From the NCBI GenBank assembly GCA_902825845.1, contig CADECM010000001.1, forward strand, positions 98,831 through 162,830: DNA of 64,000 bases. The letters run 5' to 3'. Position 1 is the stretch's first letter, and every line of letters starts with the position of its first letter. Shown one piece after another: positions 13,653-53,977 of the stretch. The notes below the pieces were generated by a model. The model saw only the letters and a program-made list of their open reading frames with translations, did not search any database and was not told the origin of the DNA. The position numbers were made by a program, and so were the translations under genes. The stretch comes from an uncultured beta proteobacterium (GTDB lineage: Bacteria > Pseudomonadota > Gammaproteobacteria > Burkholderiales > SG8-41).

Positions 13653-13653
13653 G

Positions 13654-15033: not shown

Positions 15034-15036
15034 TTC

Positions 15037-23039: not shown

Positions 23040-24341
23040 ATGAAAGCCGATTCCCATCAACCCGATGCCGCCGCCTTGCGCGACATGCTGCTGGCGGCAC
23101 GACAACGCACGCTGGCCTATGCAGGCGCGCTGCAACCCGCACAATGGCTTGGACCGTACCTGAGTATCGTCAATCCGCCGCTATGGGAGATCGGGCATGT
23201 CGGCTGGTTTCAGGAGCACTGGTGTTTGCGCTATCGATCGGCGGGAGCGCTGGCGCCGGCCCTGCTGCCCGATGCGGACGCGCGTTATAACTCCGCCATC
23301 GTGCCGCATGCGGAGCGCTGGCGACTGACGCTGCCGGAACCCACGCATACGCTGGCCTATTTGAGCGAGGTTCTGGATGCGGTGATCGCGCGTCTGATGC
23401 GAGACGGGGCGACAGACCACCTGCGCTACTTCGCGCTGCTTGCGGTGTTTCACGAGGAAATGCACAACGAAGCGTTTCATTACACGCGCCAGACGTTGGG
23501 ATATCCGCAGGCATTGCCGGCACGGGAAGCGATGCGTGCGGTGGCGCCATGCCCGGGCGACAGCGACATAACGGGCGGACGGTTCATGCTCGGTGCAAGT
23601 GAAAACACCGGATTTGTGTTTGACAATGAGAAGTGGGCGCATGAGGTTGAGGTGGCGCCGTTTCGCATGGCGCGTACTGCGGTTTGCAATGCTGAATATT
23701 CCACATTTGTCGAGGACGGCGGCTACACCAGACGCGAGTTGTGGGACGACGACGGCTGGGCCTGGCGCTCGCGCGCAGATGCCAACTGTCCACTGTATTG
23801 GGTGAAGACGGATGATAGCTGGCGCGCGCGCTACGGGGACCGCATACTGCCGCTCGCGCCCAAGGCGGCAGTGCTGCATGTGAACTGGTATGAGGCACAA
23901 GCCTATTGTGTCTGGGCGGGCCGGCGCCTGCCGTCGGAAGCCGAGTGGGAATTTGCCGCCGCAACCGCACCCGGGGTACTCGCGAGCAAGCGGCGTTATC
24001 CGTGGGGCGAGGCGCCGCCGGCTGCAACACGCGCAAATCTGTATGGCGGCGCCGGCACCACGATCGACGTCGCCGCATTGCCCGACGGCGACAGCGCTTG
24101 GGGTGTGCGTCAGATGTTCGGCAATGTGTGGGAGTGGACGGCGGACTGGTTCAACCCCTATCCCGGCTTTGTGCGCGATCCGTACAAGGAATATTCCGAG
24201 CCCTGGTTCGGCAATCACAAAGTGCTGCGCGGCGGCTGCCATGCGACGCGTGCCGGCCTGCTGCGCAACACATGGCGTAATTTTTACACGCCCGAGCGGC
24301 GCGATGTGCTGGCGGGGTTTCGCACCTGCGCTACAGACTGA
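23040..24341 (+). CDS. EgtB/OvoA/SenA-family non-heme iron sulfoxide/selenoxide synthase (DinB-like N-domain + FGE-sulfatase C-domain)
   Basis: 433 aa. Three-His motif context WEIGHVGWF plus FHEEMHNEAFH. FGE-type RLPSEAEWEFAA, GNVWEWTADW and LRGGCHAT...LAGFR. Confidence 0.8.
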   Translation: MKADSHQPDAAALRDMLLAARQRTLAYAGALQPAQWLGPYLSIVNPPLWEIGHVGWFQEHWCLRYRSAGALAPALLPDADARYNSAIVPHAERWRLTLPEPTHTLAYLSEVLDAVIARLMRDGATDHLRYFALLAVFHEEMHNEAFHYTRQTLGYPQALPAREAMRAVAPCPGDSDITGGRFMLGASENTGFVFDNEKWAHEVEVAPFRMARTAVCNAEYSTFVEDGGYTRRELWDDDGWAWRSRADANCPLYWVKTDDSWRARYGDRILPLAPKAAVLHVNWYEAQAYCVWAGRRLPSEAEWEFAAATAPGVLASKRRYPWGEAPPAATRANLYGGAGTTIDVAALPDGDSAWGVRQMFGNVWEWTADWFNPYPGFVRDPYKEYSEPWFGNHKVLRGGCHATRAGLLRNTWRNFYTPERRDVLAGFRTCATD

Positions 24342-35024: not shown

Positions 35025-35040
35025 TGGCACGCTGATTGCA
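35025..35040 (+). promoter_or_regulatory. sigma54 (RpoN) -24/-12 promoter element
   Basis: TGGCAC-GCTGA-TTGCA is a perfect match to TGGCAC-N5-TTGCA. It lies in the intergenic region directly upstream of the accessory operon. Confidence 0.6.
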
Positions 35041-35041
35041 A

Positions 35042-35065
35042 GTATTGACAGCAGGATGTCAATAC
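35042..35065. promoter_or_regulatory. inverted repeat (candidate GntR/HutC operator)
   Basis: GTATTGACA-gcagga-TGTCAATAC: 9-bp perfect arms with a 6-bp spacer. It starts 2 bp after the -12 element and spans ATG 35056. Confidence 0.45.
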
Positions 35066-35871
35066 AAGTGATAGAGAGTGAAAAGGATCGTCAGGCTTCG
35101 CCGCTGACTGCGCGTGTCGTAGCGGATACGGCCTTGGGAGACACCTGCAATCCCTCCTCACCGATCCCGCTGTACTCGCAAATTCGCGAGCTTTTACGTG
35201 CACGCATCCTGGACGGCACGTATCGCTGCGATGTCAGGATGCCATCGGAAAACGACATGGTCAGGGCTTTCGGCGTGAGTCGCATCACGGTGCGCCAAGC
35301 CTTGAATGACCTCCAAAAAGAAGGCCTGATTTTCAAAATACACGGCAAGGGCACCTTTGTTGCGCGGCCAAAGGCGGTCCAGAACCTGATGCGTCTCGAG
35401 GGCTTTGGTGAAGCGATGTCGGCCGCTGGCCACTACACGCATTCCCGTGTGTTGGGACATAGGGTGATGCGTCCCCCTCGACATATATTGGCACGCCTTG
35501 CACTGGACGAGAAGTGCGAGGTAATGGAGATCCGCCGCATTCGCTACCTCAATCACGATCCCATTTCCCTGGATGTCACTTATGTGCCGGTTGAACTGGG
35601 GCAGCGCCTGATCAAGGAAGATCTGCCGCGCCGCGACGTCTTTCTCATTCTCGAGACTGATTACGGCTTCCGCCTGGATCGCGCCGAGTTGCGTATAGAC
35701 GCGACATTGGCCGACGCGGCGCTGGCGGAAGTCCTCGCGGTAGCAGAGGGTTCGCCTGTGCTGCGTATTGAGCGCCTTACGCTGGCACTCCCGGACCAGC
35801 CGATCGACTTCGAATATCTCTATTACCGGGGTGATGCATTTCAATACTTCATGATGGTCGGGCGTCGATAA
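35056..35871 (+). CDS. GntR-family transcriptional regulator, HutC subfamily (wHTH + UTRA effector domain)
   Basis: MPSENDMVRAFGVSRITVRQALNDLQKEGLI wHTH, and a C-terminal UTRA-length domain. Start is uncertain (ATG 35056, GTG 35068 or TTG 35134). Confidence 0.88.
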   Translation: MSIQVIESEKDRQASPLTARVVADTALGDTCNPSSPIPLYSQIRELLRARILDGTYRCDVRMPSENDMVRAFGVSRITVRQALNDLQKEGLIFKIHGKGTFVARPKAVQNLMRLEGFGEAMSAAGHYTHSRVLGHRVMRPPRHILARLALDEKCEVMEIRRIRYLNHDPISLDVTYVPVELGQRLIKEDLPRRDVFLILETDYGFRLDRAELRIDATLADAALAEVLAVAEGSPVLRIERLTLALPDQPIDFEYLYYRGDAFQYFMMVGRR

Positions 35872-35916
35872 GCGCGATATGCAGCAGCGCAGCCATCCAT
35901 TGCAAGGAAGCAAGAC

Positions 35917-37653
35917 GTGACAATGAAACTGATCGAGCTGGAAACCGACGTACTGGTTGTCGGTGGCGGAACCGCAGGTCCAATGGCCGCAGTGAAGGCG
36001 AAAGAGCGCAACCCCAAGCTTCGGGTGATGCTGCTGGAAAAGGCAAACGTCAAGCGCAGTGGCGCCATCTCCATGGGCATGGACGGGCTGAACAATGCGG
36101 TGGTGCCCGGTCATGCCACGCCTGAGCAGTACACCAAAGAGATCACGATTGCCAACGACGGCATCGTCAATCAGAAAACGGTCTACGCCTATGCGAACCA
36201 TAGCTACACGACGATACAGGAACTCGATCGCTGGGGTGTGAAGTTTGAAAAGGATGAGACCGGCGATTACGCCATGCGCAAAGTGCATCATATCGGCACG
36301 TATGTATTGCCGATGCCGGAAGGGCATCATATGAAGAAGGTGCTCTACCGGCAGCTCAAACGGGCGCGGGTGGACGTCACCAACCGGGTGGTGGCGACGC
36401 GCGTGCTGACGGATAGCAAGGGACAGGCGGCCGGTTTGCTGGGATTTGACTGCAGGAGCGGGGCGTTCGTGGTGGTGCGTGCGAAAGCCGTCATTCTGTG
36501 CTGTGGCGCGGCAGGGCGCATCGGTCTGCCGACTTCAGGTTATCTGTTCGGGACTTACGAAAATCCGACCAATGCGGGCGACGGATACAGCATGGCGTTT
36601 CATGCGGGTGCCGAACTCTCCAATCTCGAATGCTTCCAGATCAATCCGTTGATCAAGGACTACAACGGTCCGGCCTGTGCCTACGTCACCGGGCCATTTG
36701 GTGGCTATACCGCGAACGCCAGGGGGGATCGCTTCATCGAATGCGATTACTGGAGCGGGCAGATGATGCAGGAGTTCTATAACGAACTGCAAAGTGGCAA
36801 CGGCCCGGTATTCCTCAAACTCGACCATCTGGCTGAAGAGACCATACAGACCATCGAGCATATTCTGCATACCAACGAGCGGCCCAGCCGTGGGCGCTTC
36901 CACAGCGGACGTAAAACCAATTACCGCGAGCGGATGATTGAGATGCACATCTCCGAAATCGGCTTTTGCAGTGGCCACAGCGCGTCTGGCGTTTACGTCA
37001 ACGAGCGTGCCGAAACCACTGTGCCTGGCCTTTATGCGGCCGGCGACATGGCCAACGTACCCCACAACTACATGCTGGGTGCCTTCACTTATGGCTGGTT
37101 TGCCGGGACTAATGCGGCGGAATACTGCGCAAATTACGACGGTGGCACAGTGGATTCGGCGCAGATTGCGGAGGAGATGAACCGTGTTTCTGCTCCCTTA
37201 CGCCATGGCGGCGGACTGCCACCCTCGCAGGTGGAATACAAATTGCGGCGCATGGTCAACGACTATTTGCAGCCGCCCAAAGCGACCCGAAAAATGAAAC
37301 TGGCGCTTGAGCGATTCGACGAAATTGGCGAGGATATCGGGAACATTTCCGCCGAGAACCCGCACGAGTTGATGCGAGCAATGGAGGTGCAGGTGATTCA
37401 TGACTGTGCGCGCATGGCGGCCCATGCCTCGCTGTTCCGCGAAGAAAGCCGCTGGGGCCTGTATCACAACCGCGTGGATTTCCCCGAGCGCGACGACGTC
37501 GATTGGTTCACCCATTGTCATCTGCGCAAGGATGACGTGGGCGCCATGAGCAGCTTCAAAAAGGCAGTCGAGCCCTATTTGTTCCCGCTGGATGACAATG
37601 AGAAAAACGCCTATCAACGGCTGCGCGTGGTTGCGCCGGCGCGGACTGCATAA
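35917..37653 (+). CDS. AprA-like FAD flavoprotein (adenylylsulfate reductase alpha / fumarate reductase superfamily)
   Basis: 578 aa. DVLVVGGGTAGPMAA dinucleotide fold. LLEKANVKRSGAISMGMDGLNNA and AAGDMANVPHNYMLGAFTYG resemble AprA rather than the SdhA motif HGANRLG seen at 53977. Confidence 0.75.
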   Translation: MTMKLIELETDVLVVGGGTAGPMAAVKAKERNPKLRVMLLEKANVKRSGAISMGMDGLNNAVVPGHATPEQYTKEITIANDGIVNQKTVYAYANHSYTTIQELDRWGVKFEKDETGDYAMRKVHHIGTYVLPMPEGHHMKKVLYRQLKRARVDVTNRVVATRVLTDSKGQAAGLLGFDCRSGAFVVVRAKAVILCCGAAGRIGLPTSGYLFGTYENPTNAGDGYSMAFHAGAELSNLECFQINPLIKDYNGPACAYVTGPFGGYTANARGDRFIECDYWSGQMMQEFYNELQSGNGPVFLKLDHLAEETIQTIEHILHTNERPSRGRFHSGRKTNYRERMIEMHISEIGFCSGHSASGVYVNERAETTVPGLYAAGDMANVPHNYMLGAFTYGWFAGTNAAEYCANYDGGTVDSAQIAEEMNRVSAPLRHGGGLPPSQVEYKLRRMVNDYLQPPKATRKMKLALERFDEIGEDIGNISAENPHELMRAMEVQVIHDCARMAAHASLFREESRWGLYHNRVDFPERDDVDWFTHCHLRKDDVGAMSSFKKAVEPYLFPLDDNEKNAYQRLRVVAPARTA

Positions 37654-37670
37654 GACGAACAGGGGACCTC

Positions 37671-37904
37671 ATGCCAACCGCCATCAATCGCACCAGTGTT
37701 CCTGTCAGTGTTGACGACGAAAAATGCATCGCCCACAAAGGTTGCACGGTTTGTGTGGACGTATGTCCGCTTGACGTGCTGGCCATCGACATCGTGAAAG
37801 GCAAGGCCTACATGAAGTTCGACGAGTGCTGGTACTGCATGCCCTGCGAACAGGATTGCCCCACAGGCGCCGTCCACGTCGATATTCCTTACCTGTTGCG
37901 TTAA
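37671..37904 (+). CDS. 2x[4Fe-4S] ferredoxin, AprB-like ferredoxin domain only
   Basis: 77 aa. Cx5CxxCxxxCP plus CxxCxxCxxxCP (CWYCMPCEQDCP). KAY..CWxC context as in AprB. It lacks the C-terminal half of AprB. Confidence 0.75.
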   Translation: MPTAINRTSVPVSVDDEKCIAHKGCTVCVDVCPLDVLAIDIVKGKAYMKFDECWYCMPCEQDCPTGAVHVDIPYLLR

Positions 37905-37916
37905 GGCAGGTCGACT

Positions 37917-38885
37917 ATGAATGCGAATGTTACGACTTTCGTCCCCGGGGATTACCGCTCCCGTCTCACCGATCCGGACGCAGAGGTGCGGCGAATAGCC
38001 GTGATGGAATTACCCTATTGTGACGAAGCGGACTTCACGCAGTTGGGTCTGGCGGCACTGTCTGATGTCGTGCCAGCCGTGCGTGCCGAGGCCGCCAGGG
38101 CGCTGGAAGGGATCGAACAGGACGAGATCGTAGCGGCGTTGGCCGCGGCATTGCGTGATGTCGATGCCGACGTGCGCGAAGCGGCCGCGCAAACTCTGTC
38201 GGAACTCAAGGACCCCGCCATGGGAGCATACATCGTGCCGGTGCTGACGGATGATGACGCATTCGCAAGGGCTGCCGCTTTTCGCGCATTGCGGGAATTG
38301 CGCATCCCCGAAGTATTTGCAACGGCACGTGCCGCGCTGTGCGATGCCGCGCCGCGGGTGCGGCGGGAGGCGGTGTCCGTCCTCGGCTACCTTAAGAATC
38401 CAGACGGGTTGGGTGAGTTGACGCGCGTGGCAATGAATGATCCCGATGAGGAAGTCAGACGCATCGCGGTCGGCGCATTGGGGTACGCCACGGACGATCA
38501 AGTGCTGCCGGCCCTGACACATGCGCTCAAAGACGTCTCGTGGCAGGTGCGGGAAGAGGCGGCGAGCACGCTGGGAAAAGTCGGGCCGCGGGATGCCGTC
38601 GATAGTATGTTGCCGGTTCTGGAAGACAGTTACAGGCAGGTGCGCATACGCGCCATTCGTAGTTTGGGACGATTGAAGGCACGCGAAGCAGTGGCGGCGA
38701 TTATCGAAATGCTTGAACACCCCGTCAGCAACGTGCGCAAAGAATCGGCGATCGCACTGGGGGAGATTGGCGACACCAAAGCGATACCGGCTCTCGAGAA
38801 GGCGCGTCAGGATGCGGATCCGGATGTGCGCAAACTGGCGCAGATTGCACTGGCCACAATGACTCGCCAGTACGCAACCAAGTGA
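37917..38885 (+). CDS. HEAT-repeat (PBS-lyase HEAT-like) protein
   Basis: 322 aa of roughly 30-aa repeats of the form D-x-D/E-x-x-VR-x-x-A-x-x-x-L-G. Confidence 0.85.
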   Translation: MNANVTTFVPGDYRSRLTDPDAEVRRIAVMELPYCDEADFTQLGLAALSDVVPAVRAEAARALEGIEQDEIVAALAAALRDVDADVREAAAQTLSELKDPAMGAYIVPVLTDDDAFARAAAFRALRELRIPEVFATARAALCDAAPRVRREAVSVLGYLKNPDGLGELTRVAMNDPDEEVRRIAVGALGYATDDQVLPALTHALKDVSWQVREEAASTLGKVGPRDAVDSMLPVLEDSYRQVRIRAIRSLGRLKAREAVAAIIEMLEHPVSNVRKESAIALGEIGDTKAIPALEKARQDADPDVRKLAQIALATMTRQYATK

Positions 38886-38898
38886 AGGCACGCAAGTG

Positions 38899-39225
38899 AT
38901 GGCACATGTGGCGACGATAGGTTTTATCGATGGCGGATTCACAAACTGCGTGAATGTCTGTCGGTTCGATTCTGTTCAGGAAGGGCTGAATTTACCCGCA
39001 CTTTATCGGGATGATTGTAGCGATTGGATGCAGTGTGTGGCCGAGTCTCTGGAGAAAGCCAATTTCGAGGCCGGTGAAGTCACCCTACCGCAGAAGCACT
39101 TTGCCGGGTTTAAAGAACGCAGTGCAACAGCATGGCCGGTCATTACGGAAAGGCGCGAGCCGCTGCGGGAAGCGGCACGTTGGTCAGGCGTTATTCCAAA
39201 ACTGGCGCAAGTGAAGGACGTTTGA
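38899..39225 (+). CDS. Azotobacter-type (7Fe FdxA-like) ferredoxin homolog with degenerate cluster-binding cysteines
   Basis: 108 aa. Aligns without gaps to my recollection of A. vinelandii FdI (WP.ITE..PL, W.GV..KL conserved). Only Cys16, 20, 39 and 45 are retained. Cys8, 11, 24, 42 and 49 are replaced by F, G, S, W and S. Confidence 0.7.
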   Translation: MAHVATIGFIDGGFTNCVNVCRFDSVQEGLNLPALYRDDCSDWMQCVAESLEKANFEAGEVTLPQKHFAGFKERSATAWPVITERREPLREAARWSGVIPKLAQVKDV

Positions 39226-39267
39226 GCAGGCATGGTTGGTCGTGGATATTTAAAGGAGATGGGCATC

Positions 39268-40731
39268 ATGACGACGGGCGAACGCAGTATTGGTGCTACC
39301 TTGGGGAAATTCAAGGCGCTGCGCGGTATGGTTGTGGGCGGATGCATGGGCGCGGTCCTGCTGTCTGCGGCTTCACAAGCCCAGACCACGATCAAGATCG
39401 GCATTGGCACACAGAACACGACTACCAACACCGTTACCGGGGGCATGGTCATCAAGGAGCTCAAACTGCTTGAAAAACATCTGCCGCGGACGGGGAAATA
39501 TGCCAAGGTGACGTACGAGTTCGACTGGCAGAACGCCACGTCCGGACCACCCATCACCAACGGCATGATGGCCGATAAGATCCAGATTGGCATGATGGGC
39601 GACTATCCGCTATTGGTCGCTGGCGCGACCGGACAGGCGACGAGGAATGAGACACAACTGATCGCAGTCATTGCCTACAACCAGTTTGGCGCAGGTAACG
39701 GTGTTGTGGTGCACAAGGATTCTCCGTACTATGAATTGTCTGATTTGAAGGGAAAGCTGCTGTCAGTCCCCTTCGGCTCGGCGGCGCACGGCATGATGCT
39801 GCAGGCGATGCAGGCAAGAGGCTGGCCGGATACATTCTGGAGGTTGGTGAGTCAGTCGCCGGAAGTCGGAACCACCAATCTGCAGGAAAAACGCATCGAC
39901 GGTCACGGCGACTTTGTGCCGTTTGCTGAATTGCTGCCGTATCGTGGTTTCGCGCGCAAGATCTTCGACGGTGCAGAAACCAAGGTTCCAACCTTTCATG
40001 GCGTGGTGATTCGCAAGGATTTCGGCGAGAAATATCCTGAAATTGTGGTTGCCTACATCAAGGCGTTGATGGAAGCAAACGACTGGGTCCGCAAAGATCC
40101 GAAGGTCGCGATGACCAAAGTCGAAGAGTGGACCAAGATCGAGAAGGAAGTGGCCTACGTTTTCCTCGGACCCAGCGGCATCCACACATTGGATCCGACG
40201 ATCAAGCCGAAGTGGGTCGAGACAATCGGCGTCGTATATGACGTGCTCAAGAAGATGGGGCGCGTGAAAGCCTTCGATGTGAAAGCGTGGATCAATGAGA
40301 GCTATCTCAAGCAAACGTACAAGGAACTGAATCTCGATTACGACAAGCAGAAGGCCTCGTTTGCGGGTTATGAAATTGCCGGCAAAGATACGCTGTGTAA
40401 CGGCACGATCACCAAACCTCGCGAAGCTGGAGAAATCTGGATCTCCGGCGCAGACATTGTCCCGTTCAGCTCCACCGTTTGCACCCTGGCTGCCATCAAA
40501 AAGCTGCAAGGCGAAGGCAAGAAGATCGCTGTGGCCTATGTGTTCGATAAGTCGCTCGGCATCAAGATGTTCGCGGACAAGGCCTTTTACGCGGTCAACG
40601 CCACAGATCCCCAAAAGCCCCTGATTGCGCCCTTCCTGCTAAAAAAGGATGCCGAAGCGCATGTCGCCAAGGGGGGCGGCAAGCTTGCCTCGTATGCCGA
40701 GGCGCTGGCCGCGGCAAACATCGGCAAATAG
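39268..40731 (+). CDS. ABC transporter substrate-binding protein (NMT1/SsuA/TauA-like) with extra C-terminal NosL-like domain
   Basis: Signal peptide MVVGGCMGAVLLSAASQA. ATG 39268 lies 9 nt after AAGGAG. The last ~125 aa resemble NosL (FSSTVC..., AFYAV...PLIAPFLLKKDAEAHVAKGGGKL). Confidence 0.8.
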   Translation: MTTGERSIGATLGKFKALRGMVVGGCMGAVLLSAASQAQTTIKIGIGTQNTTTNTVTGGMVIKELKLLEKHLPRTGKYAKVTYEFDWQNATSGPPITNGMMADKIQIGMMGDYPLLVAGATGQATRNETQLIAVIAYNQFGAGNGVVVHKDSPYYELSDLKGKLLSVPFGSAAHGMMLQAMQARGWPDTFWRLVSQSPEVGTTNLQEKRIDGHGDFVPFAELLPYRGFARKIFDGAETKVPTFHGVVIRKDFGEKYPEIVVAYIKALMEANDWVRKDPKVAMTKVEEWTKIEKEVAYVFLGPSGIHTLDPTIKPKWVETIGVVYDVLKKMGRVKAFDVKAWINESYLKQTYKELNLDYDKQKASFAGYEIAGKDTLCNGTITKPREAGEIWISGADIVPFSSTVCTLAAIKKLQGEGKKIAVAYVFDKSLGIKMFADKAFYAVNATDPQKPLIAPFLLKKDAEAHVAKGGGKLASYAEALAAANIGK

Positions 40732-40753
40732 CGCGTGAGTGAGGAGCCGCTTC

Positions 40754-41680
40754 ATGGACAGTGTGCATGTACTGCGCAAGGCGGAGCCTCCGGTGAAAGA
40801 CTATCGGAGCGAAGTCGATCCGGCGCCGCCAAAAGGGCGTGGCACAGCATTGTCTGCTGCGCCGGCGATTCCACCCAATTCAGCAGCGATATGGTTGCGC
40901 AGCAAGGGCGTCAGCATGCTGCTATGGGTCGTCTCGCTTGGCATCATGCTCGCCTTCTGGTACGTCGTCACCCGCTACAAACTCGAGTTCTACATCCGCT
41001 TTGTTAACGTGCCGACGCCAGCAGAAGTTATGCAAAAAGTGGTCGAGGTCAATCAGTCCGGTAAATTTCTGGTGAATATCGGCTACAGCGTTCGCCGCAT
41101 TCTGATCGGATTTTCCATCGCTGTGGTGCTGGGTGCAGCCATGGGATTGCTGATCGGCCGATATCGCTTTATGCGCGATATGTTATTTCCCATCTGCGAG
41201 GTGTTGAGACCGATCCCCGCGATTGCATGGGTGCCAATGGCGATCATGTTGTGGCCGACCAACGAGGTGAGCATCGTATTCATCACCTTTATGGGCTCAT
41301 TCTTCCCGATCCTGATCAATACCATCCACGGTGTGCACTCGATTGATCCGGTATTGATACGCGCCGCGCGCAGTCTCGGAGCCAACGAGTACCGCCTGTT
41401 CGCGAATGTAATTTTGCCTGGCGCAATGCCGCATATTTTTACCGGATTCTCCGTGGGCATGGGTGTGGCCTGGGTATCGCTGATTGCCGCGGAGATGATC
41501 TCGGGACAGTTCGGTATCGGTTATTTCACGTGGGAGGCTTATTCGCTGGTCAGTTACGCCGAAATTGGGCTTGGCATGATCACCATTGGTGTTCTTGGAC
41601 TGGCGTGTAGTGGGGCTATTCAAATCACGGGCAAGCTCTTGATGCCTTGGGCTTCCTATGCCGGAGCAGAAAAGAAATGA
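40754..41680 (+). CDS. ABC transporter permease (NitT/TauT family)
   Basis: Six-TM BPD-type permease with an EAA-like loop (IRAARSLGANEYRLFANVILPGAMP). GAGGAG RBS 7 nt before ATG 40754. Confidence 0.88.
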   Translation: MDSVHVLRKAEPPVKDYRSEVDPAPPKGRGTALSAAPAIPPNSAAIWLRSKGVSMLLWVVSLGIMLAFWYVVTRYKLEFYIRFVNVPTPAEVMQKVVEVNQSGKFLVNIGYSVRRILIGFSIAVVLGAAMGLLIGRYRFMRDMLFPICEVLRPIPAIAWVPMAIMLWPTNEVSIVFITFMGSFFPILINTIHGVHSIDPVLIRAARSLGANEYRLFANVILPGAMPHIFTGFSVGMGVAWVSLIAAEMISGQFGIGYFTWEAYSLVSYAEIGLGMITIGVLGLACSGAIQITGKLLMPWASYAGAEKK

Positions 41681-42537
41681 ATGGCAATTCCAAAGGTGCC
41701 ATCGACATTCACGATCTTGGCGTCGTTTTCATTGCTGGTGACACCAGGGTCGAGGCCGTGAGCGCCGTAAACATGAACATCAAGCCGGGAGAATTTGTTT
41801 CGCTGATCGGCCCTTCCGGATGCGGCAAATCGACATTGCTCAACATCGTTGCCGGATTTGTGCAGCCCAGTTTCGGTGCCGCATCGATTGATGGCGCGAC
41901 AATAAAGGGGCCTGGATCAGAATGCGGTGTGGTATTTCAGCAATATTCGCTTTTTCCCTGGTTGTCGGTAAGAAAAAACGTTGAGTTTGGCCTGAAAATG
42001 AAAGGTGCTCCGGCTTCGGTGCGGGAAACTCAGGCTCGAACCTTGCTCGGATTGGCAGGGCTCCTGGCGTTTGAAAATCACTATCCTGATCAACTGTCGG
42101 GCGGCATGAAGCAGCGGGTCGGCATCGTTCGCGCGTTGGCGACCAGTCCGCAGGTGCTGCTGATGGATGAGCCGTTCGGTGCGCTCGACGCGCAAACGCG
42201 GGTGGTGATGCAGGAAATCCTAACCAACATGTGGCAGCGCTTCCGCATCTCGGTGCTTTTTGTTACCCATGATATCGAGGAGTCGATTTTTCTCTCCGAC
42301 AGGATTTATGTAATGACCGCGCGTCCCGGGCGTATCAAGGCCGAAATCATAGTGCCGCTTGCCAGGCCGCGCACGCCGGAAATGACCGCGTCCGCCGAGT
42401 TCATTGCCATGGTGCAACAGCTGAAGCGGTTGATACGCGAAGAGTCACTGGCGGCGATGGGCGCGGAGTTGAAGGACGGAGGACTAAGCGGGTTTGGCAC
42501 GGCGGTGGGCCCAAGCGGTATTGCTGAAATGATATGA
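41677..42537 (+). CDS. ABC transporter ATP-binding protein (NitT/TauT family)
   Basis: Walker A GPSGCGKST, signature LSGGMKQR, Walker B LLMDEPFGALD. ATGA overlap with the permease. Confidence 0.93.
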   Translation: MNGNSKGAIDIHDLGVVFIAGDTRVEAVSAVNMNIKPGEFVSLIGPSGCGKSTLLNIVAGFVQPSFGAASIDGATIKGPGSECGVVFQQYSLFPWLSVRKNVEFGLKMKGAPASVRETQARTLLGLAGLLAFENHYPDQLSGGMKQRVGIVRALATSPQVLLMDEPFGALDAQTRVVMQEILTNMWQRFRISVLFVTHDIEESIFLSDRIYVMTARPGRIKAEIIVPLARPRTPEMTASAEFIAMVQQLKRLIREESLAAMGAELKDGGLSGFGTAVGPSGIAEMI

Positions 42538-42547
42538 GTGCGGAGTC

Positions 42548-45500
42548 ATGAAGCCTGGCCGGCCCGATTTGGTGCGGCCAGTGGAAATCAGGCTGCGTAC
42601 GGCGGCAAAGGTGCTGGAAATGGACTGGCAGGATGGTTCGTCTTCAATTTGGGCGCATAGCGTGTTGCGAGAAAGCTGCCGGTGTGCCGGTTGCACGGCT
42701 GAGCGTCGCAGGGGCAAGGCAGTGGTGGCGGCGGCAGATATCATTCTAATCGAGGTAATGCCTTATGGTTCTGGTGCGTTGTGTTTCAGTTTCAGTGACG
42801 GACACAAGCGCGGCATATACCCATTTGAGTACCTGCGACAGTTGGCAGGCCGCAGCATTCCCAACGTTCCTACGGGTCCGGTAGCCACAGCGCGTGTTGA
42901 GGGGATTGCCATGATCGGCGATAATCCAAAACTTTTACACACATTGCGTGAAAACTTGATAGCACCTGTACGCACATCCCCAGCGCTTGCGCTTCGTTTC
43001 GGGTATTCATTTCTCGATTTGTACGATGGCGAGGCCTTGGCACGCCTTGATGCTACGTTCCTCGGCTACGTGGCGACGGCGGAAGCTGCGCTGCGAGATC
43101 GCGTCGTTTCCGCTCGTCAGGATAGCGCAGGACTCAGCGCAAAAATGGAGTCCGAGCTGCTACTGGCGCTAACGCCACATATTGATGCATTTCTCGGTGA
43201 ACTATTTGGCATTGAGAATGAAATCGCCACGCTGTCGGGTGCGCACCATGACTTGGCGCCGCTCTATTCCGTGAAGCGCTTGTTCGTCCAGCGTAAGGCC
43301 GCAAACAAATACAAGGGTGATGCCGCCCTTCAACTGGATGGTCCGGAACTTGCCGCGAGGCTGGCTCCGATGCTGGGAGATGCGCTCACTGAGTTGGGTT
43401 TTGCGAAAAAGGTCCTTGAGTGGCAGCAAGACGAGGCAGGACATGTTGAGCAGCTTGAATTGGCGCTGCAGTATGCGGCGTGGGCTTTGCTGACGCCGGC
43501 CGGACAGCGGAAACACCATGATGGCGTTTTGTTCAAGGCGCCGCATAAACTCGACGCGCAGCATCTGGTGCCGACCACAGTGGATACCAGGCAGGGTTAT
43601 TCCACGCATACCTTTCCGGTTGAAAAGTTGCGCCGGAGGGAAGGTTTCAAACTCACCGACAAGGGCGCCGATCTGACGGGCGCGCTGGATCAGGCAAATT
43701 ATTGCATCTGGTGTCATGAGCAAGGCAAGGATTCCTGTTCCAAGGGCCTGCTGGAAAAAGGCGCCACTGGCCGCGGCGTGGCTTCGTTCAAAAAGAGTCT
43801 GTTTGGCGTAACGCTCGCCGGGTGTCCGCTGGAAGAGAAGATTTCCGAGTTTCACAAGGCCAAGACCGCCGGTTATGCCATTGGCGCGCTGGCGATCATT
43901 ACGGTGGACAACCCGATGGCGGCCGCCACCGGACATCGCATCTGCAACGATTGCATGAAGGCCTGCATTTACCAGAAGCAGGAGCCGGTGGATATTCCGC
44001 AGGCGGAAACGCGCACGCTGAAGGACGTGCTGGGGTTGCCGTGGGGTTTTGAGATTTACAGCCTGCTGACGCGCTGGAATCCGCTGAATTTGCGCAACCC
44101 GTATCCGAAGGCGGCCAGCGGCAAGCGCGTGCTGATTGCGGGCATGGGGCCGGCGGGATTTGCGCTTGCGCACTATCTGATGAACGACGGGCACAGCGTG
44201 GTGGGCATCGATGGATTGAAGATCGAACCTTTGCCCGCGAATCTTTCTGGCGTGGATGCGGCGGGCCGGCGCGTGCCGTTCACGCCGATCCGCGATATTC
44301 GCGACTTGTATGAGCGGCTGGACGAGCGGGTGATGGCCGGTTTTGGCGGCGTGGCAGAATATGGCATTACCGTGCGATGGGACAAAAATTTCCTAAAAAT
44401 CATAAGGTTATTGCTGGAGCGCCGGTCACAGTTCGCGCTCTTCGGCGGCGTGCGTTTTGGCGGCACTGTCACTGCGGAAGACGCCTTTGCGATGGGATTC
44501 GACCACGTGTCTCTGGCGATCGGCGCGGGACGGCCGACGGTGCTGGACATGCCGAACGGGCTGGCACGCGGCGTGCGCACGGCCTCGGATTTCCTGATGG
44601 CACTGCAGCTCACCGGCGCTGCGCGCACCGATTCCATCGCCAATATGCAGTTGCGTCTGCCGGTGGTGGTGGTGGGCGGCGGGCTGACGGCGATCGACAC
44701 CGCCACCGAGTCGCTGGCGTACTATCCGCTGCAGGTCGAAAAATTTCTCAAGCGCTACGAAGCCATGGCGCGCGAGCACGGCGAAATGGCGGCGCGCCTT
44801 GCCTGGAACGAGGAAGAGCGCATTATCGCCGATGAATTTCTCGCGCATGCGCGCGCCCTGCGCGAGGAGCGTGCCCGGGCAGCCCCGGAAAATCGCGAGC
44901 CGCGAATCGCCGAACTGTTACAGGCGTGGGGAGGGGCGACCATTGCCTATCGCAAACGCCTGGTTGACAGCCCTTCTTACACACTGAATCACGAAGAGGT
45001 ACACAAGGCGCTCGAAGAAGGCATACGCTTTGCTGAAGGCTTGACGCCCACGGCGGTTGAAGTTGATTCTTATGGTCACGCCGCGGCGTTGAAGGTCGCG
45101 GCCGGCGAGCGTGCGTTCACGCTGCGCGCACGCACCATTCTGATTGCTGCCGGTACGCAGCCGAACACCGTGTTGGCGCGCGAGGATGCCGCCCACTTCA
45201 AACTCGACGGCCGCTATTTTCAGGCTGTGGATTCTGCAGGTAATCCGGCGTCGGCCGAGAAGGCAATCGCAAAGCCCAATGAAATCAATGTGTTACTGTC
45301 AAGGCTCGCAGATGGCCGCTGCATGAGTTATTTCGGTGACGTGCATCCATCGTTTTTTGGCAATGTGGTCAAGGCGATCGGCAGCGCGAAGCAGGGTCAT
45401 CCCGTGGTCAGCCGGGTTCTCGAGGCGGTTCGTCCCGCGGCGATCATCGATGATGAAGCCTTTTTCGCGCGTCTAAACGACGACTTGCGTGCCACGGTGC

Positions 45501-46468
45501 ACGAGGTGAAGCGTCTAACGGCGATGATTGTTGAAGTAGTGGTGCGAGCCCCGCTGGCCGCGCGTCGCTTTCAGCCGGGGCAGTTTTACCGCTTGCAGAA
45601 TTTTGAATCGATCGCGCCCCGTCTGGAAGGCACGCGGTTGGGTATGGAAGGCTTGGCGCTGACCGGCGCATGGGTGGACCGTGAACGCGGCCTTATTTCC
45701 ACCATTGTGCTGGAGATGGGCGGGTCCAGCGATCTGTGCCTGCTGTTGAAGCCGGGAGAGCCGGTGATTCTCATGGGGCCCACTGGTACGCCGACGGAAA
45801 TCCCCGCAAACGAGACCGTTGCGCTGGTGGGCGGTGGACTGGGCAATGCGGTGCTGTTTTCCATTGGGCAGGCCATGCGCAAGGCGGGCAACAAGGTACT
45901 GTATTTTGCCGGCTACAAAAAAATGACCGACCGCTACAAAATCGAGGAAATTGAAGCCGCGGCCGATGTGGTGGTGTGGTGCTGTGACGACGAACCGGGC
46001 TTCACACCGACGCGAGCGCAGGACAAGACGTTTGTGGGGAATATCGTGCAGTGCATGCATGCCTATGCGATAGGCGATCTCGGTGTACAACCGATCCCAC
46101 TGCGGAATGCCGATCGCATTATCGCCATCGGCTCGGACCGCATGATGGCAGCGGTGGCGCGCGCGCGTCACGACATCCTGAAGCCGTTCGTCAAGCCGCA
46201 TCATTTCGCGATCGGTTCCATCAATTCGCCGATGCAGTGCATGATGAAGGAAATCTGCGCGCAATGCCTGCAGGCGCATGTGGATCCGGCAAGCGGCAAG
46301 ACAAGTTATGTGTTCTCGTGTTTTAATCAGGATCAACCGCTCGATCAAGTGGATTGGAGTGGTCTGAATCAGCGTTTGCGGCAGAACGCCGTGCAGGAAA
46401 AACTAACCGCGGAATGGCTGGATTATTGTCTGATCAAATCAGGCGCGCGCGAGATGCAGCGAATTTAG
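42548..46468 (+). CDS. 1306-aa multidomain oxidoreductase: DUF971 (GBBH-like N) + unknown ~270-aa region + GltD/NfnB-like FeS/FAD/NAD(P) module + PyrK/NfnA-like FNR module with C-terminal [2Fe-2S] motif
   Basis: aa 44-49 CRCAGC plus His86 (DUF971 Zn site). Cys386/389/397/426/466/469/473 with GCPLEEKI (GltD-type). GMGPAG (aa 532-537) and GGGLTA (aa 710-715) Rossmann motifs. FQPGQFYRL and LVGGGLGNA (FNR-like). C1231-x5-C-x2-C-x17-C1258. Confidence 0.75.
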   Translation: MKPGRPDLVRPVEIRLRTAAKVLEMDWQDGSSSIWAHSVLRESCRCAGCTAERRRGKAVVAAADIILIEVMPYGSGALCFSFSDGHKRGIYPFEYLRQLAGRSIPNVPTGPVATARVEGIAMIGDNPKLLHTLRENLIAPVRTSPALALRFGYSFLDLYDGEALARLDATFLGYVATAEAALRDRVVSARQDSAGLSAKMESELLLALTPHIDAFLGELFGIENEIATLSGAHHDLAPLYSVKRLFVQRKAANKYKGDAALQLDGPELAARLAPMLGDALTELGFAKKVLEWQQDEAGHVEQLELALQYAAWALLTPAGQRKHHDGVLFKAPHKLDAQHLVPTTVDTRQGYSTHTFPVEKLRRREGFKLTDKGADLTGALDQANYCIWCHEQGKDSCSKGLLEKGATGRGVASFKKSLFGVTLAGCPLEEKISEFHKAKTAGYAIGALAIITVDNPMAAATGHRICNDCMKACIYQKQEPVDIPQAETRTLKDVLGLPWGFEIYSLLTRWNPLNLRNPYPKAASGKRVLIAGMGPAGFALAHYLMNDGHSVVGIDGLKIEPLPANLSGVDAAGRRVPFTPIRDIRDLYERLDERVMAGFGGVAEYGITVRWDKNFLKIIRLLLERRSQFALFGGVRFGGTVTAEDAFAMGFDHVSLAIGAGRPTVLDMPNGLARGVRTASDFLMALQLTGAARTDSIANMQLRLPVVVVGGGLTAIDTATESLAYYPLQVEKFLKRYEAMAREHGEMAARLAWNEEERIIADEFLAHARALREERARAAPENREPRIAELLQAWGGATIAYRKRLVDSPSYTLNHEEVHKALEEGIRFAEGLTPTAVEVDSYGHAAALKVAAGERAFTLRARTILIAAGTQPNTVLAREDAAHFKLDGRYFQAVDSAGNPASAEKAIAKPNEINVLLSRLADGRCMSYFGDVHPSFFGNVVKAIGSAKQGHPVVSRVLEAVRPAAIIDDEAFFARLNDDLRATVHEVKRLTAMIVEVVVRAPLAARRFQPGQFYRLQNFESIAPRLEGTRLGMEGLALTGAWVDRERGLISTIVLEMGGSSDLCLLLKPGEPVILMGPTGTPTEIPANETVALVGGGLGNAVLFSIGQAMRKAGNKVLYFAGYKKMTDRYKIEEIEAAADVVVWCCDDEPGFTPTRAQDKTFVGNIVQCMHAYAIGDLGVQPIPLRNADRIIAIGSDRMMAAVARARHDILKPFVKPHHFAIGSINSPMQCMMKEICAQCLQAHVDPASGKTSYVFSCFNQDQPLDQVDWSGLNQRLRQNAVQEKLTAEWLDYCLIKSGAREMQRI

Positions 46469-46515
46469 GATGGCTGCCATGCGCTGTGTGCGTGGCGTAC
46501 CTCTCGATGCTCAGC

Positions 46516-46527
46516 TGTTGTACAACA
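46516..46527. promoter_or_regulatory. 12-bp perfect palindrome upstream of the LLM monooxygenase gene
   Basis: TGTTGTACAACA lies 19 bp upstream of ATG 46546, in the only sizeable (77-bp) intergenic gap of the operon. Confidence 0.35.
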
Positions 46528-46545
46528 ACCTGTTAAGGCGATGAC

Positions 46546-47634
46546 ATGAACCTTGGCTTTTTTACCATGCCCATCCATCCGCCGGAGCGCAACTACACGC
46601 AAACGCTGAAGGAGGATCGCGAGGCCATTCTGTTGGCTGACAAATTGGGCTACAGCGATGCCTTCATTGGCGAGCACACGACGGATATCTGCGAAAATAT
46701 CCCATCGTGTCTCGCGTTTATCGCAAGTCTTGCGCACGAAACGCGACAGATCAAGCTGGGCAGCGGCACTGTAAACCTTCCGAACGGTCATCCGGCCGCC
46801 ATCGCAGCGAACGTTGCAATGGTCGATCACATGCTGGAAGGGCGCTTCCTGTTCGGAATTGGGCCAGGCGGCTTGCGTTCGGATCAGGAAGTGTTCGGCA
46901 ATATCAAGAACGACCGCACGCGAATGTTCGTCGAGTCAATCGATCAGATTCTCGCTATTTGGGACGGCAAGCCGCCTTACGACATCAAGGGCGAATTCTG
47001 GAACATCAGCACGGGTGAAACCATGATCCCCGAAGTGGGGCAGGGGGTGATGCTGAAACCGTACCAGCAACCGCATCCGCCGATCGTCGTCACCGTGGTC
47101 GAACCCTTTTCCAAGGGCGTTGCGGCTGCGGCGCAGCGTGGCTGGAAACCCATTTCGGCCAACTTTCTGCAGCCCAACTGGGTGAAAACGCATTTCACCA
47201 GCTATCAGCAGGGCTGTGAAATTGCCGGGCTGTCGGCCAAGCGCGAGGATTGGCGCGTCTGCAAAAGCATCTTTGTCGCCGATGACGATGCCACAGCAAT
47301 GCGCTACGCCAAGACGCTCGAGGGGCCTTACGGTTTTTATTTCTGGAACTTGCTGACCAAGCGCAAGGCGCGTGGCGCAGCGAACATCTACAAACCCGAT
47401 CTGGCGATGCCTGATGAGGCAGTAACGGTGCAATTTGTGCTGGATACACTGGTTATCGCGGGCAGTGTCAATTCCGTTGTGGATCAGTTGCTGAAGTTTC
47501 GCGAGACCACCGGTGACTTTGGCACTTTGCTATATTGCGGACATGACTGGGTGGATCCGACGCTGGCACGGCGATCCATGCAACTCATGGCGGAACAGGT
47601 AATGCCGCGCGTGAATGCGGCGATTCATGCGTAA
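46546..47634 (+). CDS. LLM-class (luciferase-like) flavin-dependent monooxygenase, LimB-like subgroup
   Basis: 362 aa. MNLGFFTMPIHPP...GYSDAFIGEHTTD...KLGSGTVNLPNGHPAAIAANVAMVDHMLEGRFLFGIGPGG is typical of the bacterial luciferase family. Confidence 0.82.
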   Translation: MNLGFFTMPIHPPERNYTQTLKEDREAILLADKLGYSDAFIGEHTTDICENIPSCLAFIASLAHETRQIKLGSGTVNLPNGHPAAIAANVAMVDHMLEGRFLFGIGPGGLRSDQEVFGNIKNDRTRMFVESIDQILAIWDGKPPYDIKGEFWNISTGETMIPEVGQGVMLKPYQQPHPPIVVTVVEPFSKGVAAAAQRGWKPISANFLQPNWVKTHFTSYQQGCEIAGLSAKREDWRVCKSIFVADDDATAMRYAKTLEGPYGFYFWNLLTKRKARGAANIYKPDLAMPDEAVTVQFVLDTLVIAGSVNSVVDQLLKFRETTGDFGTLLYCGHDWVDPTLARRSMQLMAEQVMPRVNAAIHA

Positions 47635-47653: not shown

Positions 47654-47679
47654 AAAAAAGGAGGCATGCGCCTCCTTTT
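47654..47679. terminator. bidirectional intrinsic terminator
   Basis: AAAAAAGGAGGC-atgc-GCCTCCTTTT: a GC-rich stem flanked by an A-run and a T-run, between the convergent LLM gene and the small lipoprotein gene. Confidence 0.75.
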
Positions 47680-47696
47680 CTATGCTGTCACCCGCC

Positions 47697-47834
47697 TCAA
47701 TCATCGAGGACGTCAACCTGGGTGCCAAACGGGCCGGAATCATGTGCTGCGGTACCCTGCATATCACCCATGCTGGCGCAACCTGCGAGGAGTGCCAGCA
47801 ACAAGGCCAGGATTGTGTGGGCAAGATTTTTCAT
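47697..47834 (-). CDS. small (45-aa) putative lipoprotein, absent from the ORF track
   Basis: The minus strand translates to MKNLAHTILALLLALLAGCASMGDMQGTAAHDSGPFGTQVDVLDD. Lipobox LLAGC. AGGAG 6 nt upstream of the ATG. A terminator follows the stop. Confidence 0.55.
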   Translation of the reverse strand: MKNLAHTILALLLALLAGCASMGDMQGTAAHDSGPFGTQVDVLDD

Positions 47835-53636: not shown

Positions 53637-53977
53637 AGCGCGAAGTGATCGGCGCCCACTACGGCCTGCGCGATTGGCTGGCGCAGCGCGTAACTGCGCT
53701 CGTGATGGCGATATATACGATCATTTTCCTGACCATGGTGTTAAGTCTGCCGCAATTTGACTTTCCCAGCTGGAAATCGATGTGGGCATCGCCGTGGCTG
53801 CGCTCCGCGACCTTGCTGTTTCTGCTAAGTTTATTCCTGCACGCATGGATCGGCATGCGCAATATCTTCATGGACTACGTCAAGTCCACGGGCTTGCGCT
53901 TGACGCTTTACGTTCTGGTGATCCTTGCCCTGGTTGCGTACGGCGCCTGGGCTGTGCAGATTCTGTGGGGAAGGTAA
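53630..53977 (+). CDS. sdhD: succinate dehydrogenase hydrophobic membrane anchor subunit
   Basis: ATG 53630 (MVKREVIGAHYGLRDWLAQR) overlaps the sdhC stop. 115 aa, 3 TM helices. Confidence 0.9.
   Translation: MVKREVIGAHYGLRDWLAQRVTALVMAIYTIIFLTMVLSLPQFDFPSWKSMWASPWLRSATLLFLLSLFLHAWIGMRNIFMDYVKSTGLRLTLYVLVILALVAYGAWAVQILWGR

Follow-up and report, generated by a model that had tools for sequence, protein, structure and literature searches.

What does a bacterium do with an operon that places a relative of adenosine 5'-phosphosulfate (APS) reductase beside a sulfonate-type importer? The question is raised by ten head-to-tail open reading frames (ORFs), all on the plus strand (35056 to 47634) of a 64,000-nucleotide stretch of DNA, hereafter the window, from an uncultured beta proteobacterium (contig CADECM010000001.1, positions 98,831 to 162,830). 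A previous sequence-only reading had described the ten genes as one accessory operon, with import and redox catabolism of an anionic small molecule as its working hypothesis and an organosulfonate as the obvious guess. We confirm the ten-gene observation; more than 80 other genomes share the arrangement, which is more than chance would give. The unit that is conserved consists of eight genes plus exchangeable electron-input modules. At roughly even odds (about 0.5), we read this module as one that imports an X-SO3 compound, which a ferredoxin-fed reductase would cleave with release of sulfite.

A conserved core and its local additions

We compared the ten window proteins with 82 related loci, 73 of which had enough downstream sequence to be treated as complete (Beta- and Gammaproteobacteria); about 100 related loci were compared overall. 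All 73 complete loci encode both the 77- to 81-residue ferredoxin (beta) and the HEAT-repeat protein that accompany alpha, a flavin adenine dinucleotide (FAD) flavoprotein. A regulator with GntR and UTRA domains adjoins the alpha gene in 71 of the 73, a DUF971 protein is encoded in 63, and an ATP-binding cassette (ABC) importer, whose binding protein, permease and ATPase are kept together, is found in 62. The remaining window genes are rare: the 1306-residue oxidoreductase (hereafter the giant) occurs in 6 complete loci and an FdxA-type ferredoxin in 5, and no homologue of the luciferase-like (LLM) protein was detected at E < 1e-5 among the 82 loci screened. Thus, the regulator, alpha, beta, the HEAT protein, DUF971 and the three-gene importer form an eight-gene core that is co-conserved far beyond chance, to which exchangeable electron-input modules are added. 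The idea of a ten-gene system does not survive these counts. Co-conservation, which the sequence-only reading had proposed as a check on the cluster, holds for the core and fails for the LLM gene.

Two gene orders were found. In Pseudomonas, Burkholderia, Paraburkholderia, Acinetobacter and Cupriavidus, the order is regulator, alpha, beta, binding protein, permease, ATPase, HEAT, DUF971; in the window and a few Burkholderiales relatives, it is regulator, alpha, beta, HEAT, FdxA, importer, giant. Twelve loci have no linked importer, and an SsuA-like transporter adjoins several of these. The closest relative of the window locus lies in the Betaproteobacteria metagenome-assembled genome (MAG) UBA5216 (locus L007), where alpha is 89% identical and the cluster occupies the same chromosomal place after folD. 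There, DUF971 (103 residues, 12438-12749) and the oxidoreductase (1197 residues, 12771-16364) are separate ORFs 22 nucleotides apart, which the window fusion joins through a linker of about 25 residues. A minus-strand ORF stands in L007 where the window has its LLM gene.

The FdxA-like protein of the window has kept only 4 of its 9 cluster cysteines (5 are lost), although its reading frame is intact and its DUF3470 tail conserved. Its orthologues in L007 (8757-9116), L008, L009, L025, L033, L084 and L085 retain the full 7Fe/8Fe cysteine set. The window gene is either a decaying gene or one that encodes a cluster-less adaptor. Because the fusion, the cysteine loss and the LLM gene are absent or separate in relatives, we regard all three as recent, local features peculiar to the window lineage. 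By this comparison, the giant is a recent, lineage-specific fusion of DUF971 with an NfnB-NfnA-like oxidoreductase. The LLM protein, for which no NCBIfam model exceeds its cut-off, is probably co-transcribed with the other genes in the window, yet it lies outside the conserved system.

The core is widespread. A species-level scan (one genome per species) identified at least 581 genomes that encode a close relative of alpha, and alpha is 60 to 77% identical across Proteobacteria, Cyanobacteria and Actinobacteria, often on plasmids. Translated plasmid searches found it in the Alphaproteobacteria Rhizobium, Sinorhizobium, Mesorhizobium, Bradyrhizobium, Methylobacterium and Methylocystis, and also in Variovorax, Acinetobacter baumannii, Leptolyngbya, Pseudanabaena and Nonomuraea. 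Among 1.8 billion proteins clustered at 50%, only two full-length clusters were more than 60% identical to alpha, one of them a 925-residue alpha::HEAT fusion. Such conservation is unusual for an accessory enzyme and, together with the plasmid location, suggests horizontal spread and tight structural constraint. The cluster is absent from pANL, the sulfur-regulated plasmid of Synechococcus PCC 7942.

Regulators and accessory modules are exchanged between lineages. In other phyla, the GntR-type regulator is replaced by a Crp/Fnr protein or by a LysR::NMT1 fusion. The Methylobacterium radiotolerans locus reads DUF971, alpha, beta, HEAT, Crp, importer, fdxA, ferredoxin-NADP reductase, and a Variovorax locus has the FdxA gene without the giant. 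A locus of the fusion type (L087) has the order GntR, ferredoxin, binding protein, permease, ATPase, alpha::HEAT fusion. Two cyanobacterial plasmids carry the importer, a LysR::NMT1 regulator (L095 9388-11424; L096 9646-11661), alpha, beta, HEAT and, in the place of DUF971, an Mrp/NBP35 iron-sulfur carrier (L095 15099-16205; L096 14960-16072), followed by TauE/SafE and YeiH transporters. Greedy longest-ORF calling yielded many antisense ORFs in GC-rich loci; it was used solely for recurrent flanking families, which were then checked against Pfam.

The putative enzyme, its importer and its electron supply

The system belongs within the APS and 3'-phosphoadenosine 5'-phosphosulfate (PAPS) reductase kind. 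Alpha matches NCBIfam model NF006131 (PRK08275) across residues 2 to 573 with 1093.8 bits (cut-off 587), an uncharacterized family with the generic name fumarate reductase/succinate dehydrogenase flavoprotein subunit. Among solved structures, alpha comes closest to the alpha subunit of the PAPS reductase from Methanothermococcus thermolithotrophicus (MtPAPSR, 8A8O; E = 3.7e-66, ~35% identity), followed by AprA of Archaeoglobus. Alpha scores below the aprA cut-offs (TIGR02061, 168 versus 641.75 bits; NF005331, 297 versus 557) and below the SdhA/FrdA cut-off (TIGR01812, 168 versus 567.3 bits). We take Asn74, Arg265, His398 and Trp234 (A. fulgidus numbering) to be the active-site residues of AprA. 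Pairwise and multiple alignments agree that the equivalents of Asn74 and His398 are retained in alpha, as N59 and H354. The nucleotide-selecting substrate loop has a 6-residue insertion in an invariant His-rich segment. The published work on MtPAPSR describes an enzyme of APS-reductase architecture that keeps the catalytic residues and releases sulfite from PAPS via an adduct at FAD-N5. An AlphaFold model of alpha from a shallow alignment reached a predicted local distance difference test score (pLDDT) of 46 and was not used for a fold search.

Directly 3' of alpha, beta contains the motifs Cx5Cx2Cx3CP and Cx2Cx2Cx3CP, that is, eight cysteines for two [4Fe-4S] clusters, all eight conserved in at least 90% of 83 sequences. 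It matches the aprB model TIGR02060 at positions 2 to 64 of 132 (37 bits), with no room for the AprB tail. The tail is likewise missing from the AprB-like proteins of anaerobes, and the AprAB-like paralogues of these organisms have been tentatively linked to sulfur assimilation; the present proteobacterial and cyanobacterial family with HEAT and DUF971 is not described in the paper on these paralogues. Alpha and beta are thus like MtPAPSR and AprAB (1JNR, 2FJA) in joining an FAD subunit of the fumarate-reductase fold to a small subunit with two [4Fe-4S] clusters, as well as in the two conserved residues. They are unlike them in their HEAT and DUF971 partners, their dedicated importer and regulator, and their active-site changes.

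In P0122/L087, as in NCBIfam model NF010374, the HEAT protein forms the C-terminal part of a fusion with alpha. Given these natural fusions, we argue that HEAT is a stable third subunit. It has no conserved cysteine and no His-Glu metal motif, and a deoxyhypusine-hydroxylase-type diiron enzyme, for which conserved His-Glu motifs would be expected, was ruled out.

The sequence-only reading knew of no characterized pathway with this composition, which overlooked two analogues, namely the methanogen PAPS reductase and the genetically defined AsfAB pair. The latter, part of asfRABC in Pseudomonas putida S-313, is required for the use of toluenesulfonate as a sulfur source and is the nearest genetically defined analogue. 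Its flavoprotein, ferredoxin and sulfonate-binding protein are needed for the use of arylsulfonates. Like the window system, asfRABC pairs a flavoprotein from this superfamily with a dicluster ferredoxin encoded after it, lies beside NitT/TauT-type transport genes and serves sulfur scavenging from sulfonates. Unlike it, AsfB has 111 residues, the regulator is of the LysR type, no HEAT or DUF971 partner is present, and the pair is thought to feed an oxygenase. The asfA marker primers had no match in window alpha or beta (up to 3 mismatches) or in 93 loci (up to 1 mismatch). The asfA/asfB primers do match a gene pair in the chromid of Cupriavidus metallidurans CH34 (Rmet_4334/5), the replicon said to carry AsfAB, and this AsfA candidate is 25% identical to alpha over 246 residues. 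We therefore rejected the identification of the window system as asfAB. The CH34 pair (L107 23390-29863, ~923-930 kb) adjoins an NMT1-type ABC importer, an Amidohydro_3 gene, a gene for a fatty-acid-desaturase-like protein, and a TctC gene.

The importer is a complete NitT/TauT system in one operon, comprising an NMT1 binding protein, a BPD_transp_1 permease and an ABC_tran ATPase. The best Protein Data Bank (PDB) matches of the binding protein are TauA (6SSY) and SsuA, and it scores below both equivalog cut-offs (TIGR01728 SsuA_fam, 103.4 versus 163.5 bits; TauA, 66.6 versus 304). Ligand contacts were taken from published structural work on TauA. The sulfonate-coordinating positions Gln30, Gly61, Gly79 and Thr/Ser132 are kept as Q61 (in a GTQN motif), S104-G105, G123 and S183, counted from the ORF start at 39232. 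N156 and H256, both invariant, stand in the places of the amine-binding acids Glu106 and Asp205. The permease best matches ntrB, SaoP, TauC and SsuC models, all below cut-off, and the ATPase best matches SaoA and the taurine and nitrate transporter ATPases. The system is therefore like SsuABC/TauABC with SsuD/TauD in its transporter family, its sulfonate-coordinating positions and its presumed end product, sulfite. It is unlike them in having a binding protein of ~470-490 residues with a NosL-like domain and altered amine-binding positions, and in that no SsuD, SsuE or TauD is conserved in the operon.

The C-terminal 120 residues of the binding protein (~40380-40731) appear NosL-like by Pfam and by the fold of the model (Foldseek match 7OG7, target TM-score 0.61). 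The AlphaFold model has a pLDDT of 52 overall, and the C-terminal domain alone (pLDDT 71-91) was interpreted. NosL is a copper chaperone; two cysteines are invariant in this domain in the window's subfamily only, and a NosL-like domain is also present at L095 5833-7344.

Three states of electron supply occur among the operons, namely no donor module, FdxA with the giant, and FdxA with a ferredoxin-NADP reductase. The giant comprises DUF971 (Cys3-His), a helical linker domain, an NfnB/GltD-like part (two [4Fe-4S] clusters, FAD, NAD(P)H) and an NfnA/PyrK-like part (FAD, [2Fe-2S]), with cysteine motifs at residues 386-425 and 465-472 and near the C-terminus. Its PDB matches are NfnI alpha/beta 5JCA (chains L and S), 4YLF and, for DUF971, 3LUU (E = 1.3e-14); it scores 805 bits against NF005128, below the cut-off of 1072. 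It is like NfnAB in combining these modules with their Fe-S motifs, and unlike it in being one chain in B-A order with an N-terminal DUF971 and a ~290-residue linker domain without a domain match, present in a minority of loci. These domains and motifs, and the replacement of the giant by FdxA and ferredoxin-NADP reductase in Methylobacterium, support the earlier suggestion that the giant is an NAD(P)H-driven electron source. Because the donor modules are interchangeable, oxidize NAD(P)H and reduce ferredoxin, alpha-beta would be the electron sink, a ferredoxin-fed terminal reductase. A sister flavoprotein, 37% identical to alpha, is paired with an NfnB-like protein. DsrL, a related NAD(P)H:acceptor oxidoreductase, is comparable in its partnership with DsrAB, since the giant, too, would couple NAD(P)H to an enzyme of sulfur oxyanions.

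The DUF971 part scores 63.8 bits against PF06155 (cut-off 22.8), and C44, C46, C49 and H86 are conserved in 68 sequences. A mutant-fitness study assigned DUF971 to Fe-S cluster maintenance from cofitness, and the Mrp/NBP35 carrier that takes its place in cyanobacteria fits such a role.

Proposed reductive sulfite release and its alternatives

Several genomic contexts connect the core with sulfur acquisition. In Sinorhizobium americanum, it adjoins sulfate and sulfonate ABC genes and TauD, and in Metapseudomonas (Pseudomonas) it lies among TauD, tauABC, and enzymes of cysteine and methionine metabolism. In 11 of the 82 loci, the 10 kb around the cluster include an operon for the SrpI encapsulin (family 2A), the cysteine desulfurase that is its cargo and an acetyltransferase resembling CysE, on either side and in both orientations (L014, L016, L019, L020, L046, L058, L067, L076, L082, L083 and L086; Paraburkholderia, Cupriavidus, Acinetobacter, Aquabacterium and Pseudomonas). 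DszA-like LLM genes stand upstream in seven loci, mostly Paraburkholderia, where SsuA-like genes also adjoin. The organosulfur link of the sequence-only reading is thus supported, both by these islands and by the conserved sulfonate positions of the binding protein.

The division of labor that it proposed, with an LLM oxygenase releasing sulfite for the Apr-like enzyme to process, is not. No oxygenase is conserved with the core, and the Apr-like enzyme is therefore more likely to be the sulfite-releasing catalyst itself. Furthermore, no other enzyme is conserved with the importer, so alpha-beta would have to act on the imported compound. Taken together, the sulfite-releasing homologues, the sulfonate-type binding site and the sulfur neighbors point to cleavage of X-SO3 to sulfite.

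We infer the following sequence of events. A GntR/UTRA repressor would sit on a palindrome at its own start until the substrate or a derivative releases it and the operon is induced. The importer would then take up a small organic or inorganic anion with an -SO3 group. Electrons from NAD(P)H would enter at the giant and reach the alpha FAD by way of the two [4Fe-4S] clusters in beta, with FdxA as a go-between in relatives. By analogy with AprA and MtPAPSR, N5 of the reduced FAD would attack the sulfur of X-SO3, X would leave, and sulfite would go to sulfite reductase for assimilation. To judge from the fusions and replacements described above, HEAT would be a third structural subunit and DUF971 would load or maintain Fe-S clusters. 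Candidates for X that fit this chemistry would have an O-, S- or N-linked sulfo group, or would be sulfonates with an activated carbon.

Several observations weigh against reductive sulfite release. In alpha, Arg265 is replaced by Leu245 and Trp234 by Tyr214, and also Tyr95 by Glu75, all invariant in the family. Arg265 and Trp234 are treated as catalytic or FAD-binding in AprA, and N5-sulfite chemistry is therefore perhaps not retained. A GntR repressor of its own would be more usual for a catabolic operon than for a member of the Cys regulon, and the proteins are not depleted in cysteine and methionine, unlike many sulfate-starvation proteins. MAGs labeled Halothiobacillus and Sulfuriferula carry the cluster, and sulfur oxidizers of these genera should rarely lack sulfur. 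A sulfur gene from our query set lies within 10 kb in only 24 of the 82 loci (none in the other 58), which, the encapsulin operon aside, is not far above chance expectation for gene-rich soil genomes. Finally, the transporters associated with sister families at ~40% identity are of the TctABC and NhaC types, which usually carry carboxylates.

The last two points also favor the alternative that survives best, in which the enzyme is a reductase or dehydrogenase for an imported sulfur-free compound, such as an organic acid, and the sulfur neighbors are incidental. The NCBI family name of alpha agrees with this, and NitT/TauT transporters also carry ligands without sulfur. Nonetheless, we consider it unlikely. 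The closest solved relatives release sulfite, the binding protein keeps the sulfonate positions, and in independent lineages the cluster adjoins the TauE/SafE and YeiH exporters as well as the SrpI operon, which is otherwise present in single copy. Alpha also has Leu245 and Met386 where, in a motif comparison, fumarate reductases have what we take to be their substrate arginines (Arg287 and Arg390 of FrdA).

Somewhat less credible still is a role as helper, in which alpha-beta would be an electron-transfer pair, as proposed for AsfAB, serving a C-S-cleaving oxygenase (the LLM protein in the window, an enzyme of the SsuD or DszA type in other genomes). AsfAB is built of the same two genes beside a NitT/TauT binding protein, the LLM gene lies 3' of the cluster in the window, and the DszA-like genes accompany some relatives. 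Yet the LLM gene has no homologue in the related loci, no oxygenase accompanies the core consistently, and alpha is just 25% identical to the C. metallidurans AsfA candidate. The NAD(P)H modules (ferredoxin-NADP reductase and the giant) lie upstream of alpha-beta in the electron flow, which makes the pair a sink. Furthermore, we know of no flavoprotein in the superfamily of alpha with an NAD(P)H site, and the reductant of LLM oxygenases is free reduced flavin, not ferredoxin.

A ferredoxin-dependent APS/PAPS reductase isoenzyme for sulfate assimilation, with sulfate or thiosulfate as the import of the ABC system, is improbable. MtPAPSR is indeed the best solved match, and the AprAB-like genes of anaerobes, proposed for sulfur assimilation, lie near sat, cysC and nitT/tauT. 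However, alpha fails the aprA models, Arg265 and Trp234 are lost, the nucleotide-specificity loop contains an insertion, and the binding protein is of the TauA/SsuA rather than the Sbp/CysP type. A look for domains characteristic of sat, cysC, qmo or aprM, which covered the scanned ORFs of the window and not the related loci, was negative.

Most improbable is an oxidative role, in which sulfite is detoxified or activated, or an imported sulfonate oxidized, with electrons leaving via ferredoxins to NAD(P)+: AprAB does run in reverse in sulfur oxidizers, sulfur-oxidizer MAGs carry the cluster and sulfite exporters adjoin it in cyanobacteria, but the redox couples of enzymes in this family are much more positive than NAD(P)+/NAD(P)H, ferredoxin-NADP reductase and Nfn modules in aerobes normally feed ferredoxin, no AMP- or ATP-sulfurylase partner is present, and the importer and regulator imply an external substrate.

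If reductive sulfite release is correct, alpha-beta-HEAT could be the first of a new class of enzymes, a ferredoxin-driven "sulfo-group reductase" that cleaves sulfonates, thiosulfonates or sulfate esters to sulfite with no need of O2 or of activation by ATP, a proposal that we advance tentatively. The core is unexplained in the literature that we searched. Full-text searches on DUF971, AprA-like proteins, HEAT proteins in sulfur starvation, asfA, TauA/SsuA and PAPS reductase homologues returned no characterization of this gene set, omics papers on organosulfur use in Rhodococcus and Gordonia mention no such genes, and an Acinetobacter paper on dimethyl sulfide is unrelated. A search for a "sulfonate/sulfate ester reductase" led to organic chemistry alone. 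A report on nitrogenase-like isethionate assimilation in Rhodobacter capsulatus (PMC11423573) describes a route that is comparable in doing without an oxygenase, by means of nitrogenase-like and radical SAM enzymes under anaerobic conditions. Its enzyme families are unrelated to ours, and the pathway is anaerobic, whereas the hosts of the present system are mostly aerobes.

The window locus, its control and what it may mean

The coordinates of the window locus are collected in Table 1. The domain content named in the sequence-only reading was reproduced by Pfam and NCBIfam for each of the ten ORFs, with a weak match for NosL. Its left edge at 35025 needs correction: no in-frame start lies there, and the regulator ORF opens with ATG at 35056. 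On an identical metagenome contig, the regulator was independently called at 267 residues, equivalent to a start at GTG 35068.

Table 1. Features of the ten-gene locus, with positions in the window.
Feature	Position	Strand	Basis
Candidate GntR/HutC-type operator	35042..35065	.	Perfect 9-bp inverted repeat GTATTGACA-N6-TGTCAATAC, overlaps regulator start codon
HutC-type GntR-family regulator, winged helix-turn-helix and UTRA effector domain	35056..35871	+	Pfam GntR 7e-20, UTRA 1.3e-33
Alpha: FAD flavoprotein, fumarate-reductase/APS-reductase superfamily, proposed catalytic subunit	35917..37653	+	FAD_binding_2 and Succ_DH_flav_C; NF006131
Beta: 77-residue ferredoxin, two [4Fe-4S] motifs, AprB-like without C-terminal tail	37671..37904	+	Cysteine motifs; TIGR02060
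HEAT-repeat protein, proposed third structural subunit	37917..38885	+	HEAT_2 2.2e-57
Degenerate FdxA-type ferredoxin, DUF3470 tail	38896..39225	+	Pfam/NCBIfam and cysteine count
Periplasmic binding protein, TauA/SsuA-like NMT1 and C-terminal NosL-like domain	39268..40731 (ORF opens 39232)	+	Pfam, NCBIfam and PDB matches
NitT/TauT-family ABC importer permease	40739..41680	+	BPD_transp_1 7.8e-22
ABC importer ATPase	41647..42537	+	ABC_tran 5.9e-32
1306-residue fusion (giant): DUF971, NfnB-like and NfnA-like modules, proposed electron input	42548..46468	+	GBBH-like_N, Fer4_20, Pyr_redox_2
Luciferase-like (LLM) flavin oxidoreductase	46546..47634	+	Bac_luciferase 1.6e-42
Intrinsic terminator hairpin, bidirectional	47654..47680	.	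AAAAAAGGAGGCATGCGCCTCCTTTTC, read directly

A single operon is plausible, as had been suggested, with short spacers and 5 internal terminator-like matches versus 14.4 in shuffled sequence. Gaps of 45, 17, 12, 10 and 77 nucleotides follow directly from the ORF coordinates; those of 13, 42 and 22 nucleotides and a 4-nucleotide overlap can be obtained with internal start codons, such as 39268, where the recorded 487-residue binding protein (P0271) begins. The terminator is also confirmed, as a GGAGGC-ATGC-GCCTCC hairpin with A6 and T4 flanks, and it is absent from the list of a consensus terminator scan. Converging on the same terminator from the minus strand is a small ORF (~47700-47834) whose product has a lipoprotein-like signal (MKNLAHTILALLLALLAGCAS...).

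The GntR and UTRA domains place the regulator in the HutC subfamily, with no equivalog model at cut-off. The palindrome at its start is a candidate operator, and palindromes at the same position in related loci read ACTTGT(T/C)ATAACAAGT and GTCATAACTCGTTATGAC, and CTTGTATCAA-N4-TTGATACAAG in L007. A perfect 12-bp palindrome, TGTTGTACAACA, lies at 46516-46527 in the 77-nucleotide spacer between the giant and LLM genes and has TTGT/ACAA in common with those at the regulator starts. From this resemblance, the LLM gene may have GntR-type control of its own.

Both housekeeping flanks are as originally described. Upstream lies ppsA-pyrG-kdsA-eno-ftsB-folD; downstream lie a protease-like gene, prpD, prpC and mdh on the other strand, then sdhAB-gltA-sucAB-lpdA. 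The real SdhA of the window is encoded at 53782-55746, separate from alpha. Composition reveals no clear foreign island (GC 0.54-0.61 in the cluster versus 0.55-0.64 elsewhere), and no Rfam family or tRNA was found within or adjoining the cluster. Elsewhere in the window, a protein with DinB_2 and FGE-sulfatase domains, the domain pair of EgtB-type sulfoxide synthases, is encoded at 23040-24341 beside a glycosyltransferase in an otherwise housekeeping stretch. In other genomes, genes for GNAT acetyltransferases abut the cluster (Methylocystis L100 5218-5769 and 11931-12473, one of which overlaps the HEAT stop codon; L087 12745-13395), which may indicate an amine-bearing product or substrate.

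A review puts the organic share of soil sulfur at more than 95%, for the most part sulfonates and sulfate esters, whose release it describes as the work of oxygenases and sulfatases, respectively. A conserved, reductive and ferredoxin-fed release of sulfite would alter this picture, given the number of species-level genomes that encode alpha. If our favored reading is true, organosulfur compounds would have a further route beside oxygenases, sulfatases, glycyl-radical lyases and Xsc, one that would be common among Proteobacteria of soils and plants, clinical Burkholderia and Acinetobacter, and cyanobacteria. It would provide a second marker gene for soil sulfur cycling beside asfA, and a defined client enzyme for the roles of DUF971 and HEAT proteins with Fe-S enzymes in aerobes. 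It would also give a function to a large flavoprotein family that at present bears a generic name.

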